NCBI GenBank assembly: GCA_903910555.1
Contig: CAIVZZ010000018.1
Coordinates: forward strand, 31,363 to 95,362
DNA: 64,000 nucleotides
Direction of reading: 5' to 3'
Source of the DNA: an uncultured Gemmatimonadota bacterium
GTDB taxonomy: Bacteria > Gemmatimonadota > Gemmatimonadetes > Gemmatimonadales > Gemmatimonadaceae
The notes below the pieces were generated by a model that had not been told where the DNA came from, did no database searches, and was given only the letters and a program-made list of their open reading frames with translations. Below, one piece after another: positions 1-3,968 of the stretch. Position 1 is the first letter of the stretch. Each line of letters opens with the position of its first letter. The position numbers and the translations under genes were made by a program.

Positions 1-19
1 ACTCAAAACTAGCGAGTTG

Positions 20-48
20 TTGACACCGCATGTTGATGCCGATACTAT
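20..48 (+). promoter_or_regulatory. sigma70-type promoter: TTGACA (20-25), 17 nt spacer, TACTAT (43-48). Predicted start near nt 55.
   Basis: Consensus -35 and near-consensus -10 with ideal spacing read directly. The ATG at 55 lies 7 nt after the -10, which implies a leaderless transcript. Confidence 0.5.
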
Positions 49-54
49 CTGATC

Positions 55-138
55 ATGACCCGCGCCCAACTCCCCGCAATGATGTGCTGCTGCATGTGCT
101 GCATGTGCCAACCGGCACATGGGGGAGCGGGAGCGTAG
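55..138 (+). CDS. 27-aa leader peptide candidate, MTRAQLPAMMCCCMCCMCQPAHGGAGA
   Basis: Hand translation ATG55 to TAG136-138. Ten consecutive Met/Cys codons at 79-108. Lies between a promoter and an intrinsic terminator. Below the 60-aa cut-off of the ORF track. Confidence 0.5.
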   Translation: MTRAQLPAMMCCCMCCMCQPAHGGAGA

Positions 139-182
139 GCGTCAACGCGGCCACCTGAAGCAGGCCACGATGCCTGAACCAA

Positions 183-222
183 CGCCTCCGATCCTCCAAG
201 GATCGGGGGCGCTTTTGTTTTC
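183..222 (+). terminator. Rho-independent terminator / attenuator hairpin
   Basis: 12-bp stem CGCCTCCGATCC (183-194) with GGATCGGGGGCG (200-211), one G-U pair, 5-nt loop, followed by CTTTTGTTTTC. Sits 25 nt upstream of the GTG at 247. Confidence 0.7.
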
Positions 223-246
223 TACCCTTTCTCTACGAGCGCCACC

Positions 247-1233
247 GTGACACAGCCCAAACCGATCGCCATCTATCACGAGCACCCTGACTGGTTCAAG
301 CCGCTATTCGAAGAGCTTGAACGTCGCGAGCTCCCGTACGTCCGGCTCGACGCCGCGGCGCATGTGTGGGATCCGTCCGAAACGGAATCGCCGTACTCGG
401 TGGTCGTGAATCGTGCCTCGCCGTCTGCGTATCTGCGCGGCCATGCACAGTCGACGTTCCATACCCTGCACTGGCTCAAGCATCTCGAGCGCATCGGCGT
501 CCCTGTCGTGAACGGCAGCGTGACGTACACGTCTGAACTCTCGAAGGCGCTGCAGCTCGATATTCTCGAAGAACTCGGCATTCTCTACCCCCGCGCCCGA
601 GTGATCAACAATGGATCGCAGGCGCCTGCCGCCGCGAAGGGACTCCGCTTTCCTGTTCTCGTGAAGGCGAACATCGGCGGCAGCGGAGCCGGCATCCTGC
701 GCTTCGATACGCCCGAACAGCTCGACGACGCGGCTCGTGACGGCGTCCTCGATTTGGGTGTCGATCACACCGCGCTCGTGCAGGAACTGCTGCCCCTCCG
801 CGATGGACATATCACGCGCGTTGAAGTGCTCGGCGGGAAATTCCTCTACGCCATCAACGTGTATCCGGCCGAGGGATCGTTCAATCTTTGCCCGGCCGAC
901 GTCTGCCAGACCACGGATGGAAAGGAACTCGAGCGCACCTTCTGCGCCGCCGATGCGAAGAAGAACGGAATGCGTGTTGAGGGGTTCACGCCGCCGCAGG
1001 AGATTATCGATACGGTCGAACGCATCGCCGAGCGCGTGCAGCTTGATATCGGCGGCATCGAGTATTTGATCGACGACCGCGATGGCAAGGCATACTACTA
1101 CGACATCAACGCGCTCTCGAACTTCGTCGCCGACGCGCCGAACGTGATCGGCTTCGATCCGTTCTCCCGCTTTGCCGATTACATCGAGTCGCGCGCCGGT
1201 ATCGTGTCGGCCGAACTGGCCGGAGCCCGCTGA
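247..1233 (+). CDS. ATP-grasp domain protein (RimK / glutathione-synthetase-like ligase fold), substrate unknown
   Basis: 328-aa ORF. Gly-rich loop KANIGGSGAGI and a C-terminal IEYLIDDRDGKAYYYDIN segment typical of ATP-grasp ligases. GTG start. Confidence 0.75.
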   Translation: MTQPKPIAIYHEHPDWFKPLFEELERRELPYVRLDAAAHVWDPSETESPYSVVVNRASPSAYLRGHAQSTFHTLHWLKHLERIGVPVVNGSVTYTSELSKALQLDILEELGILYPRARVINNGSQAPAAAKGLRFPVLVKANIGGSGAGILRFDTPEQLDDAARDGVLDLGVDHTALVQELLPLRDGHITRVEVLGGKFLYAINVYPAEGSFNLCPADVCQTTDGKELERTFCAADAKKNGMRVEGFTPPQEIIDTVERIAERVQLDIGGIEYLIDDRDGKAYYYDINALSNFVADAPNVIGFDPFSRFADYIESRAGIVSAELAGAR

Positions 1234-1235
1234 TC

Positions 1236-2270
1236 ATGCGGTACGGATATTGGATGCCCGTATTCGGCGGCTGGCTGCGGAACGTTCCCGACGAGGGGAT
1301 GGAAGCTTCGTGGGAATATGTGAAGAAGCTTGCGCAGCGCAGCGAACAGATCGGCTACGATCTCACGCTGATCGCCGAACTGTATCTGAACGACATCAAG
1401 GGAATCGAGGCGCCGTCGCTCGAGGCGTGGTCGACCGCCGCGGCGCTTGCGGCCGTCACGGAGCGTCTTGAGCTGATGGTGGCCGTGCGCCCCACCTTTC
1501 ACAATCCGGCGATTCTCGCGAAGCAGGTTGCGAATCTCGATCTGATTTCGAACGGGCGGATTTCCCTGAACGTCGTGTCGAGTTGGTGGGCCGACGAAGC
1601 CCGCCGCTATGGCGTGCAGTTCGACGCGCACGACGATCGCTACGCGCGCACGGAAGACTGGCTCAAGATCATCGCGGGCGCGTGGAAGGAAAAATCCTTC
1701 TCCCACGCGGGGAAATACTACCGGTCGGAGGACACGATTCTCTCGCCGAAGCCCGCAAAACGCCCGACGCTTTATGCGGGCGGAGAATCAGAGGCGGCAA
1801 AATCGTTGATCACGCGTGCCTGCGACGCGTACGTGATGCACGGTGATCCGCCGGAACGCATCGCGCCGAAAGTCGCAGACATCAAGCGACGTCGTGAGGA
1901 AACCGGACTTCCCGAGATGGAGTTCGGGATGGCGGCGTACGCAATCGTGCGGCCCACGGAGCGCGAGGCAAAAGAAGAACTCGCCCGCATCACGAATGTG
2001 AATCCGGGATCTGCCGGTTATAACAATTATCAGGACTGGATCTCACACACCAAGCTCGAGCAGCAGGTTTCGCTCGAGGATTACTCCGTGTCCAACCGCG
2101 GGTTGCGTGCGGGGCTCGTCGGAACTCCGGAACAGGTCGCCGAGCGCGTGAATGAATTCCAGGAAGCCGGCGTTGGCCTGCTTCTCCTGCAGAGCAGTCC
2201 TCAGCTGGAAGAGATGGAGCGGTTTGCGGCCGAGGTTATGCCTCTGACAGCGTCTATCGCAGTTGGCTGA
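1236..2270 (+). CDS. LLM-class (luciferase-like) FMNH2-dependent monooxygenase, SfnG/RutA-like (dimethylsulfone/sulfonate monooxygenase-type)
   Basis: 344 aa. N-terminus YGYWMPVFGGWLRN, RISLNVVSSWW, DDRYARTEDWL and LVGTPEQVAERV match my recollection of SfnG/RutA-type LLM enzymes. Starts 2 nt after the upstream stop. Confidence 0.8.
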   Translation: MRYGYWMPVFGGWLRNVPDEGMEASWEYVKKLAQRSEQIGYDLTLIAELYLNDIKGIEAPSLEAWSTAAALAAVTERLELMVAVRPTFHNPAILAKQVANLDLISNGRISLNVVSSWWADEARRYGVQFDAHDDRYARTEDWLKIIAGAWKEKSFSHAGKYYRSEDTILSPKPAKRPTLYAGGESEAAKSLITRACDAYVMHGDPPERIAPKVADIKRRREETGLPEMEFGMAAYAIVRPTEREAKEELARITNVNPGSAGYNNYQDWISHTKLEQQVSLEDYSVSNRGLRAGLVGTPEQVAERVNEFQEAGVGLLLLQSSPQLEEMERFAAEVMPLTASIAVG

Positions 2271-2769
2271 GATGGCGTTCCTCGTGCTGGCCGATCACTA
2301 GCACCCACTGGTAGCCGTTGAGCGCGCCGAAGACCGGATGCGGCGCGCTCACGGTGGAAAGGTCGCGGCCGTCGACCGTGGCGATCGCCCGGTGGAGCCG
2401 CTCGCGCACCGCCTGCAGCGACGCCCACGATGGCGAGAGCTCAGCATCCGGTTTCGGTTGCGCGCGCTCGGGCGCGTTGATCACGCGACTCCGGTCCAGG
2501 ACTCGGTACTGCTCGAGCGACTTCAGCCACGACGTCGTTGATTTCTCCATCGCGATACCGTCGGCCAGCGCTTTCGCAAAGAGCCCCTCAAGCATCTTGG
2601 TGGCCATCCCTTCCACTGCGCCGAGGTGCTGGATGATCCCGGTGCCGGTCCAGCCACCGTTCTTCGGTTTGTGATCGAACTTGGCCGGCGGAGTGCTCTC
2701 AACGAGCGAGGTGAGGTCCGCACGAATCCGCGCGAGATCAGCGGTCAGCTCTTCCATGATTGGATGCAT
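2254..2769 (-). CDS. DinB-family (DinB_2) metal-dependent protein
   Basis: 171 aa. GWTGTGIIQHLGAVEG and C-terminal HEERHLSQL are the His triad motifs of the DinB superfamily. Confidence 0.75.
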   Translation of the reverse strand: MHPIMEELTADLARIRADLTSLVESTPPAKFDHKPKNGGWTGTGIIQHLGAVEGMATKMLEGLFAKALADGIAMEKSTTSWLKSLEQYRVLDRSRVINAPERAQPKPDAELSPSWASLQAVRERLHRAIATVDGRDLSTVSAPHPVFGALNGYQWVLVIGQHEERHLSQLR

Positions 2770-2865
2770 GGGTCGAAACTAAACCACGGTTCTGGGCGGC
2801 CCGAAAGGGGTGAAACCGTGGCGAAGCGCGTATCGTAAGGAAGGAAGCAGACAACGGGAGGGAGT

Positions 2866-3174
2866 ATGTGGCCGATTATTGTGCTGGGCGTTTCGTTCGC
2901 AATTTCATGGGTGACTTATGGGACCGCTCGGCGGTTTGTGCGCGAGCGGCTCAGATATGTTGAGGCGGCGCTGACGCCAGGCGCGGCGATTGTCGCAGGG
3001 ATTGTCGCCGCAGTTGTGGCGTCGCCGGTGGTGGCGCTGTTGCACATTATTCCGCTGCTCGGCGCGCTCGTCGGCGGTGGGACTGCGCTGGTCTTTGGAT
3101 TGAGCGTAGGCCTTGGCGTGCGGTCCGGCGCTCTCGATGTGAAGCGCGGTTACGTCATCTCGTCGGGCAATTAG
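2866..3174 (+). CDS. small integral membrane protein (about 3 TM helices), hypothetical
   Basis: 102 aa, strongly hydrophobic, GGGAGGGAG-type SD upstream, followed by a terminator hairpin. Confidence 0.55.
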   Translation: MWPIIVLGVSFAISWVTYGTARRFVRERLRYVEAALTPGAAIVAGIVAAVVASPVVALLHIIPLLGALVGGGTALVFGLSVGLGVRSGALDVKRGYVISSGN

Positions 3175-3213
3175 ACAAAGGCGACGGAACCAATCGGTCC
3201 CGTCGCCTTTGTC
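3174..3213. terminator. bidirectional terminator hairpin between convergent genes
   Basis: GACAAAGGCGACGG ... CCGTCGCCTTTGTC, 14-bp perfect outer stem, directly after the TAG at 3172-3174. Confidence 0.6.
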
Positions 3214-3269
3214 GCAGAGCTATCAGCACATCGCGATCGGCCCACAGCGTTCAGTTCAACGCCGTCCGC

Positions 3270-3968
3270 TCACTGCTTAGCGAGCCCAGCGACGTGAACA
3301 CTGATCCCATGATTCACCCGAAACCCATAAATCCCCGACGACGGCGCCATCGGATTCTTTCCGTCGACCGCCGCGACTTCAACATCATTCACATAGAATC
3401 GAACTGAGTCAGCCGCGACTTTCACCGCGAGCTTGTTCGACGTTGCGCCATGATCTTTGTCGGCCGGCTTGATCGCAGCGTTCGCCGTCTGCGCAACAAC
3501 CGTGTGCACATCCGTCTTGTTGTTCGTGCCGCTGCGATGCTTCACCGCAAAGGTGCCGTTTCCATACACGAGGAAATAGCCGTAGGACTCTTTGTCGCCG
3601 CCGAGATCGCTGCCGCCCCAGACGAGGCCGATCGCGTCGTGCAATGGGATCTCGCGCACACCAAAGGTCCCGCTGATCGTGTAGGCTCCGGACGCGGTGT
3701 TAGCCGGATTCCAATAAATGGCGGCCGTGTTGCCCGACGTCACACGCATGCCCGGGCCCATCACGACGAAATTCACCGTCTCCGGTTTATTGGCCGCATT
3801 GTCCGGACGGATCATCCAGCCTGGCGGCGTCGGTCCTTCCTGCGTCACGGCCTTCTGGTCGTCGTGATCCATCTTCATCCCGGCCATGCCGCCGGCGGCC
3901 TGCGCCGATGCGGATGAAGCAATCGCCGCGATGGCGACGATACCAAATACTCCGAGAACTTTCTTCAT
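3270..3968 (-). CDS. secreted hypothetical protein (signal peptide, beta-rich, lectin/glucanase-like fold possible)
   Basis: 232 aa. N-terminus MKKVLGVFGIVAIAAIASSASAQA is a classical Sec signal. No catalytic motif recognised. Confidence 0.65.
   Translation of the reverse strand: MKKVLGVFGIVAIAAIASSASAQAAGGMAGMKMDHDDQKAVTQEGPTPPGWMIRPDNAANKPETVNFVVMGPGMRVTSGNTAAIYWNPANTASGAYTISGTFGVREIPLHDAIGLVWGGSDLGGDKESYGYFLVYGNGTFAVKHRSGTNNKTDVHTVVAQTANAAIKPADKDHGATSNKLAVKVAADSVRFYVNDVEVAAVDGKNPMAPSSGIYGFRVNHGISVHVAGLAKQ

Follow-up and report, generated by a model that had tools for sequence, protein, structure and literature searches.

A candidate transcription attenuator with a leaderless Met/Cys-codon leader upstream of an ATP-grasp–monooxygenase operon in Gemmatimonadota

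We analysed a 64-kb stretch of DNA from a Gemmatimonadaceae genome, hereafter the window, and within it the leader at nucleotides (nt) 1–246 together with the operon downstream. The operon consists of two genes on the forward strand: a gene with a GTG start at 247..1233, encoding an ATP-grasp ligase of an uncharacterised family with a LysX/ArgX/RimK-like fold, and a gene at 1236..2270 for a luciferase-like monooxygenase dependent on reduced flavin mononucleotide (FMNH2), assigned to the SsuD/MsuD/SfnG group by profile and PDB matches. The window starts one base past the start codon of a divergent peptidase-U32 gene, as seen in locus L001, so the 246-nt intergenic region is the whole regulatory space of the operon. 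This space holds a promoter, a short open reading frame (sORF) with an unbroken run of methionine (Met) and cysteine (Cys) codons, and an intrinsic terminator, all on the forward strand, which we examine here as a candidate attenuator.

The promoter combines a −35 hexamer, TTGACA (20..25), with a −10 hexamer, TACTAT (43..48), across a 17-nt spacer. The pair matches 10 of 12 consensus positions, and the 3.4 kb scanned contain 3 promoter-like sites where 0.6 are expected. An ATG follows at 55–57, 6 nt past the −10 hexamer, which therefore leaves no space for a 5′ untranslated region (UTR) or a Shine–Dalgarno (SD) sequence; transcription would begin at or next to the A of this codon. From the ATG runs a putatively leaderless leader-peptide ORF of 27 codons plus TAG (55..138), with the translation MTRAQLPAMMCCCMCCMCQPAHGGAGA, ending 108 nt before the GTG at 247 on the same strand. 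Its codons 9–18 (79..108) read ATG ATG TGC TGC TGC ATG TGC TGC ATG TGC and form the putative sensor run, MMCCCMCCMC, in which at least two consecutive Cys codons occur twice, as CCC and as CC. This density of 10 Cys/Met in 10 residues compares with at most 5 per 10 in every other sORF on both strands of the 64 kb, which argues against a chance effect of base composition. An initial annotation of this DNA had placed both a TTGACA/TACTAT promoter and a 27-codon ORF with no SD and ten Met/Cys codons at these positions, and both are borne out in the sequence. A perfect 8-bp hairpin, CAUGUGCC-AACC-GGCACAUG (102..121), takes in the last Met-Cys codons; it is kept in three orthologous loci (L005, L006 and L008), is weaker elsewhere, and is a possible pause or structure element. 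An Rfam scan of window positions 1–3000 at E ≤ 10 matched no family, the S-adenosylmethionine (SAM)-binding SAM-II riboswitch (RF00521) included.

The leader ORF is separated from the first gene by an intrinsic terminator, a 13-bp hairpin (183..211; 9 G–C pairs, 3-nt loop, −24.9 kcal/mol) followed directly by the U-tract CTTTTGTTTT (212..221). Upstream of it, a G-rich segment, region 2 (GGGGGAGCGGGAGCGU, 121..136), spans the final five sense codons plus the U of the UAG and can form the 5′ strand of an antiterminator. Its partner is region 3 (182..197), which comprises the 5′ arm of the terminator and the edge of its loop. The antiterminator duplex (121–136 with 197–182) is paired at 14 of 16 positions and is worth −19.3 kcal/mol alone. 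In the predicted folds, a hairpin (136..176) in the spacer between regions 2 and 3 holds these close to each other, and, in the minimum-free-energy structure of the untranslated RNA, region 1 (61..75) pairs with 122–135 as an anti-antiterminator. The RNA as a whole (55–225) folds at −82 kcal/mol, compared with −62.8 kcal/mol for dinucleotide shuffles (z = −4.77). The initial annotation had described a 12-bp GC hairpin at 183–211 and a G-rich stretch able to pair with its left arm: the position, the U-tract and the pairing stand, but the stem counts 13 bp and more bases pair than had been proposed.

Because equilibrium folding of the complete leader always gives the terminator and cannot discriminate between ribosome states, we truncated the transcripts before the 3′ arm of the terminator and computed the pairing probability of the 5′ arm. 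The value is 0.31 for the ribosome-free transcript, rises to 0.82 when a ribosome is stalled in the run and falls to 0.09 when it has reached the stop codon, in line with the earlier proposal that the antiterminator would form only on stalling in the run and not when the stop is reached. The stall-minus-stop contrast is 0.73 in the window; when the intervening segment is dinucleotide-shuffled it averages 0.09, and none of the 60 shuffles attains the window value. Across the 25 orthologous loci examined in detail, the contrast averages 0.38, compared with 0.11 in shuffles, and for 13 of these loci the observed value is attained by no more than 5% of shuffles. In a transcript that extends to 211, the terminator state has an advantage of 12.5 kcal/mol with no ribosome, and the two states become equal (−50.2 vs −51.0 kcal/mol) with a ribosome over 55–105. 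A comparison of free energies, suggested with the initial annotation as a check, returns the terminator for the full-length leader and the predicted switch for truncated transcripts.

The architecture of the leader recurs at orthologous loci. We fetched 80 such loci from species-representative genomes, nearly all of Gemmatimonadota, which with the window's own contig make 81, and took as leader region the 330 nt that precede a conserved protein anchor; individual loci are designated by L numbers. At 40 of the 81 loci, a sigma-70-like promoter is followed, 5–9 nt (mostly 6–7 nt) past the −10 hexamer, by an ATG or GTG that opens a Cys/Met-rich ORF of 13–35 codons. We refer to these 40 loci, which share promoter, start spacing, sORF and a terminator with the window, as class A. 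In most class A orthologues a TTGAC[ACGT]-like −35 hexamer stands at the same distance as in the window, and TACTAT, TAGCTT or TAGGTT precedes the orthologous sORF starts by 5–9 nt. The start codon is a GTG at the same position in seven loci (L006, L024, L039, L043, L054, L056 and L057), and the Cys/Met cluster begins around codon 7–12. The peptides themselves are highly diverse and retain composition, frame and position alone (for example, MTSAQTMCCCMCMCCLCCQPATEALGVRM; MMTRARMLMCVCPCCPMCCMGERATG..; MCTMCMCHLMWHQPQG..; MCMCYWHHPHLHGG...; and also MIRAQVSMMMCCCCMCQSAHGG..; M..LMCTMCMCHLMWHQPQGTG..; M..SMCMCYWHHPHLHGGLAISRISA; MPRMLMCCWTDLPTERS). Within the runs both Cys codons, TGC and TGT, are used, and length differences amount to whole codons. 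sORFs with at least 6 Cys/Met per 10 amino acids occur 12 times in the 330-nt leader position and 0 times in the remaining roughly 1 Mb (both strands, 81 loci). All 25 loci examined have a stable hairpin (−17 to −33 kcal/mol) with a T-run downstream of the sORF and ahead of the ATP-grasp gene. The lack of a conserved sORF or terminator at orthologous loci had been named beforehand as grounds for rejecting an attenuator; the sORF is found at 40 of 81 loci and the hairpin with T-run at 25 of 25. Four further loci (L010, L011, L025 and L032) keep the promoter (TTGACC..TAGGTT) and the terminator with no Cys/Met sORF between them, about 100–230 nt upstream of the ATP-grasp gene, and look like remnants that have decayed or been remodelled.

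To assess covariation, we aligned 13 leaders with MAFFT, without fitting the alignment to a structure, and used 500 shuffles as controls. For the antiterminator, 79.4% of alignment cells form standard pairs, compared with 72.7 ± 1.5% when shuffled (0/500 shuffles reaching the observed value) and 41–63% when the partner strand is slid; six pairs are altered on both sides. For the terminator, the corresponding values are 88.7% and 76.4% (0/500). Some changes run through three strands at once. At one position in regions 2/3/4, the window group has G-C-G where L084, L035, L036 and L044 have C-G-C, and at the adjoining position C-G-C is replaced by U-A-U in L052 and L071. Such concerted changes in three strands are the pattern expected if region 3 has to pair alternately with regions 2 and 4.

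A different regulatory RNA takes the place of the sORF at other orthologous loci. SAM-II riboswitches (RF00521) score above the Rfam gathering threshold at the sORF position in four of them (L083:2545-2619, L040:2796-2869, L022:2326-2400 and L033:1056-1127), and an nhmmer profile built from these four sequences matches 21 of the 80 loci at E values of 1e-18 to 1e-25. Since SAM-II occupies the sORF position there, the operon is under the control of Met/SAM status in these relatives. When the ATP-grasp proteins are arranged in a neighbour-joining tree, the SAM-II loci fall into one large clade and two small groups, one sORF locus is nested within the SAM-II clade, and the three leader states (sORF 40, SAM-II 21, neither 20) need at least 15 changes. 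Read from this tree, the sORF and the SAM-II riboswitch have evidently replaced each other more than once, and this replacement is the strongest independent support for the view that the Met/Cys codons sense sulfur amino acids. Many of the Gemmatimonadota SAM-II copies are themselves followed by a GCCCGG(G)CGGC... hairpin and a T-run, with the 3′ end of the aptamer entering the 5′ arm of the hairpin. That the aptamer match runs into this arm suggests that SAM-II in Gemmatimonadota may act transcriptionally rather than by its usual translational control.

What has been observed, by computation, comprises the features of the leader and how they are conserved, the alternative pairings with their covariation, and the replacement by a riboswitch; we consider it likely that together these describe a trp/his-type ribosome-mediated transcription attenuator on a leaderless transcript, sensing charged tRNA-Cys and elongator tRNA-Met. 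The response to stalling would proceed as follows. The promoter at 20–48 would start a transcript at or next to the A of ATG-55, and a 70S ribosome would initiate at its 5′ end. When Cys and Met are ample, the ribosome would reach the UAG at 136–138 and mask 121–136, the hairpin at 183–211 would form, and RNA synthesis would end at the U-tract. If either Cys-tRNA or Met-tRNA runs low, the ribosome would stall within 79–108, leaving 121–136 free to pair with 182–197 as it emerges; with the antiterminator formed, the terminator would be precluded and RNA polymerase would read into the ATP-grasp/monooxygenase operon. Attenuation keyed to Cys and Met supply was the logic put forward in the initial annotation, and it is now backed computationally by the covariation, the stall/stop contrast and the SAM-II replacement.

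Several observations weigh against this reading. The putative transcription start and translation of the sORF are both deduced from spacing alone, and the window-wide count of leaderless starts (TANNNT 5–7 nt before a long ORF) is a weak signal, at 13 compared with about 9 at other spacings. Some orthologous peptides retain only 2–4 Cys/Met and include Trp, Tyr or His among the clustered residues, and 20 loci carry neither an sORF nor a riboswitch. The 1:2 pairing (61–75 with 122–135) is without covariation support across orthologues, being 60.3% paired compared with 62.3% in shuffles, and for this reason we regard it as restricted to the window and its nearest relatives. For roughly half of the orthologues, shuffles do as well as the native leader in the stall/stop contrast. 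With the ribosome stalled at the last Cys codon, its edge would reach about 120, and the terminator would then be thermodynamically favoured. Region 2 segments form duplexes with cognate and non-cognate terminator arms at −19.9 and −18.3 kcal/mol, only 1.6 kcal/mol apart; because all region 2 segments are G-rich, such energies are a poor measure of specificity. Finally, the terminator, at −24.9 compared with −19.3 kcal/mol for the antiterminator, is present in every equilibrium fold of the full leader, with or without ribosome masks, so the decision must be kinetic, as in the trp operon. The same thermodynamic dominance speaks for a mechanism in which the sORF does sense Cys- or Met-tRNA and control is exerted, in the manner of the mycobacterial Ms5788A, mainly at the start of translation of the ATP-grasp gene or by way of Rho, the hairpin serving mainly to stabilize or process the RNA. 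Precedent also favours it, as the sole experimentally dissected polycysteine leaderless sORF sequesters a ribosome-binding site (RBS) (10.1101/834739). We nevertheless regard such control as unlikely here: the hairpin bears a canonical U-tract, kept in 25 of the 25 loci examined, the antiterminator shares bases with the terminator arm and the two covary, and the start region of the ATP-grasp gene (222–246) is unpaired in the predicted folds and offers no clear SD to sequester.

Readings that give the Met/Cys codons no sensing role fare worse. The Cys/Met-rich peptide might itself be the product, either as the precursor or carrier of a ribosomally synthesized and post-translationally modified peptide (RiPP) on which the ATP-grasp enzyme and the monooxygenase act, or as a small metal-binding peptide. 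RiPP precursors usually lie just upstream of their own ATP-grasp enzyme, and the ATP-grasp model is nearest to the peptide/protein ligases LysX/ArgX, which act with LysW, RimK, which acts with S6, and the graspetide enzyme PsnB. But the enzyme pair occurs without the sORF in 41 of 81 loci, with SAM-II instead in 21; a terminator separates the sORF from the enzymes; similar sORFs precede metY and methyltransferase genes elsewhere; and peptide sequence, length and C terminus are unconserved, Cys/Met composition alone being kept. Asp, Glu and Lys are absent from the window peptide and Thr occurs only once, which rules out graspetide-type cross-links, and we rejected a graspetide precursor specifically on this composition and on the lack of the sORF from the 41 ligase-bearing loci. 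A peptide product is to us the least probable account of the leader. Scarcely more probable is a structured non-coding leader, such as an unidentified riboswitch or a protein-binding RNA or DNA site, in which the Met/Cys frame would be incidental to an ATG/TGC-rich sequence. The strong RNA structure (z = −4.77), the 8-bp palindrome CATGTGCC/GGCACATG within the run and the use of a riboswitch at orthologous loci would all suit such a leader, whereas the conservation pattern does not: the nucleotides of the run are unconserved while codon composition, frame and the distance from the start to the −10 hexamer are conserved, length changes in whole codons, and the covarying pairing is that of a terminator and antiterminator rather than an aptamer-like fold. 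Rfam, too, gave no match, either for the window leader or for 20 unclassified orthologous loci.

The ATP-grasp protein has weak RimK/LysX profile matches only, its closest relatives are from Gemmatimonadaceae metagenome-assembled genomes, and a PDB sequence search likewise returned weak RimK-like matches only, for which reason we make no functional assignment. Its AlphaFold model (predicted local distance difference test, pLDDT, 81) is closest by Foldseek to LysX/ArgX, PsnB and RimK. Residues 213–235 form an insertion of low AlphaFold confidence with three invariant Cys residues, C215, C220 and C233 (NLCPADVCQTTDG..ERTFCA), which may be a metal or redox site. The monooxygenase scores 240 bits against the SfnG model, under the model cut-off of 383, and in the PDB is closest to 3RAO (447 bits), to an alkanesulfonate monooxygenase (8VW6) and to SfnG, SsuD and MsuD. 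Its closest characterised relatives are thus the sulfonate/sulfone C–S-cleaving enzymes SsuD, MsuD and SfnG, and in 79 of 81 loci its gene comes immediately after that of the ATP-grasp protein. A search of the literature for the pairing of an ATP-grasp enzyme with a luciferase-like monooxygenase gave nothing relevant. The SfnG-like identity and the sulfur link that had been proposed for the second gene are supported by this kinship, and the link is stronger through the SAM-II riboswitches at 21 loci. The physiological role of the enzymes would most likely be to acquire or recycle sulfur for Cys/Met synthesis.

Other features of the surroundings can be stated briefly. The 3′ ends of the monooxygenase gene (forward strand) and of a DinB-family gene (2254..2769, reverse strand) converge and overlap by 17 nt at 2254–2270. 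A TAGTTT ends 5–6 nt before the ATG of the divergent peptidase-U32 gene (window 1–11, reverse strand) and of the DinB-family gene (2770–2785, reverse strand), and both genes may also be leaderless. In a survey that tabulates anti-SD types by class, Gemmatimonadetes has a value of 22, among the lowest in the table (PMC10783764); we read this value as the per cent share of genes that have an SD match, a share that would be compatible with frequent non-SD initiation. Farther downstream, an inverted repeat of about 15–17 bp, ACAAAGGCGACGG..CCGTCGCCTTTGT (3175–3215), lies between the convergent ORFs 2866..3174 (forward) and 3270..3968 (reverse) and is probably a bidirectional terminator. At two orthologous loci, L066 and L080, the operon directly follows a gene ending in ..FCYDTGERYLSV(D/E)GLFVA*, a C-terminal peptide that looks like that of a cysteine synthase (CysK/CysM); the two loci share the intergenic motif GCGGAATGGCAACCGCCGCGGCGCC, for which Rfam gave no match in either.

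Similar sORFs also occur beyond this operon. A scan of metagenome contigs for ATGTGYTGYTGYATGTGY, encoding MCCCMC, found at least 80 loci, a small sample. Among the matches listed are at least four further ATP-grasp leaders (L092, L094, L117 and L140) and two unrelated contigs, L113 (G+C content 0.68) and L150 (0.51), on which an MCCCMC sORF and a strong terminator precede a gene for a MetY-like, pyridoxal-phosphate-dependent enzyme. The MetY-like proteins score 457 (L113) and 446 (L150) bits against PF01053 and are O-acetylhomoserine-sulfhydrylase-like. On L113, the sORF MKHQTATARVPACMCCCMCMGIHPRGDRPV (514–606) is followed by the metY-like gene at 735–2057; on L150, the sORF MKINYANINPCTFGNAVCCMCCCMCPATARPS.. 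lies around 3282–3299 on the reverse strand, with the strong terminator and then the metY-like gene. The literature searched for leader peptides at metY yielded nothing relevant. Also among the matches listed, three related contigs of low G+C content carry a gene for an LCM-family SAM-dependent methyltransferase after an sORF and a terminator (L091:928-945, L122:3723-3740 on the reverse strand and L148:5307-5324); their homologous sORFs, MR(T/N)(M/N)..MMCCCMC..RTYAQRCC.F, have a GGAGG SD. Another match listed, on the AT-rich, Bacteroidota-like contig L118 (2288–2305), places the sORF MNKYFFPIAGTNKNTVSMMCCCMCMSIRRSPIG and a terminator before a gene for a TonB-dependent receptor. An Rfam scan of 10 of the metagenomic MCCCMC loci matched no family.

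We are evenly balanced between accepting and doubting that mixed Met/Cys leader peptides form a widespread, multi-phylum and so far unrecognised class of sulfur-amino-acid attenuators, a 'Met/Cys ribulon' that senses Met-tRNA and is evolutionarily interchangeable with SAM riboswitches; no experimental report of Met-tRNA sensing by leader peptides was found in the full-text literature searched. The proposed attenuator would extend amino-acid-sensing leader peptides to Met together with Cys and to the poorly studied Gemmatimonadota. The alternation of sORF and SAM-II at a single operon would amount to a natural experiment in which a ribosome-based sensor and a metabolite-binding RNA are interchangeable. 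The attenuator would also place an uncharacterised, highly conserved pair, a three-Cys LysX/RimK-like ATP-grasp enzyme and a 3RAO-type SsuD/SfnG-like monooxygenase, in a sulfur-amino-acid starvation regulon, and this placement offers a handle for finding the substrate of the pair. As the Met/Cys codon signature also occurs before metY elsewhere, searching for it could be a simple way to find sulfur regulons in uncultured bacteria.

How the leader relates to known systems can be seen by setting it beside each in turn. Classical trp, his, leu and thr attenuators of Proteobacteria have clustered regulatory codons, a stop codon by region 2 and mutually exclusive 2:3 and 3:4 pairings, between which the position of the ribosome decides. 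The Gemmatimonadota leader shares with them a leader ORF, a cluster of cognate codons, a terminator, an antiterminator that uses one of the terminator strands and a region 2 that would be covered when the ribosome is at the stop; it differs in that Met and Cys would be sensed, in the predicted lack of a 5′ UTR and SD, in an unconserved 1:2 pairing and in a target that is not a canonical biosynthetic operon. The SAM-II riboswitch resembles it in operon, in position and in the terminator-like hairpin that follows, and also reports the status of the Met/SAM pool, but its aptamer binds SAM directly and needs no translation, and the window has no match to it.

The closest parallels in codon content come from other phyla. 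In mycobacteria, polycysteine leaderless sORFs attenuate Cys-related operons by a translational mechanism with experimental backing, the 'Cys ribulon' (Canestrari et al. 2020, bioRxiv 10.1101/834739). As proposed for the window, a leaderless sORF is the first cistron, Cys codons sense tRNA charging, sulfur or cysteine genes lie downstream and no protein regulator is involved. Unlike the window, these sORFs are from Actinobacteria and precede another operon, and there is no sequence homology; the Gemmatimonadota runs mix Met with Cys and reach 10–13 in a row. The dissected mycobacterial case sequesters an RBS, whereas the Gemmatimonadota leader has instead an intrinsic terminator and a covarying antiterminator, with RBS sequestration absent from the predicted folds. 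Predictions for Actinobacteria place Cys-run leader peptides before cys and cbs operons as well (PMC1262725). In Rhodobacterales, the uORFC-8-2 motif before cysS comprises a tandem-Cys upstream ORF in a stem and an intrinsic terminator and has been proposed as a Cys-tRNA attenuator (Brewer et al. 2021, PMC8632094); it differs from the present leader in having two Cys codons and no Met, in controlling a tRNA synthetase gene, in its alphaproteobacterial origin and in not being described as leaderless. The leaderless leader peptide metL (..GARCMCRRMCAF) of Streptomyces lividans TK24 interleaves Met and Cys near its end and precedes metNIQ (Droste et al. 2021, PMC8079986). Like the putative peptide of the window, it is leaderless, mixes Met with Cys and lies upstream of a methionine-related operon, but its cluster has only 3 Cys and 2 Met, it is actinobacterial and has no clear terminator, and it was annotated from RNA-seq without comparative or functional analysis.

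In the full-text literature searched, outside which most subscription journals lie, we found no Gemmatimonadota element of this kind, no instance of this operon as a target and no experimentally tested Met-codon leader peptide. The initial annotation knew of no described mixed Met+Cys attenuator for this gene pair; none was found for the operon, and the idea as such has precedents (10.1101/834739, PMC1262725, PMC8632094 and PMC8079986). The Gemmatimonadota element is an analogue, not a homologue, of the classical attenuators and of the Cys ribulon. The principle is known; what is new here is the phylum, the mixture of Met and Cys codons, the target operon and a classical terminator design on what would be a leaderless transcript.

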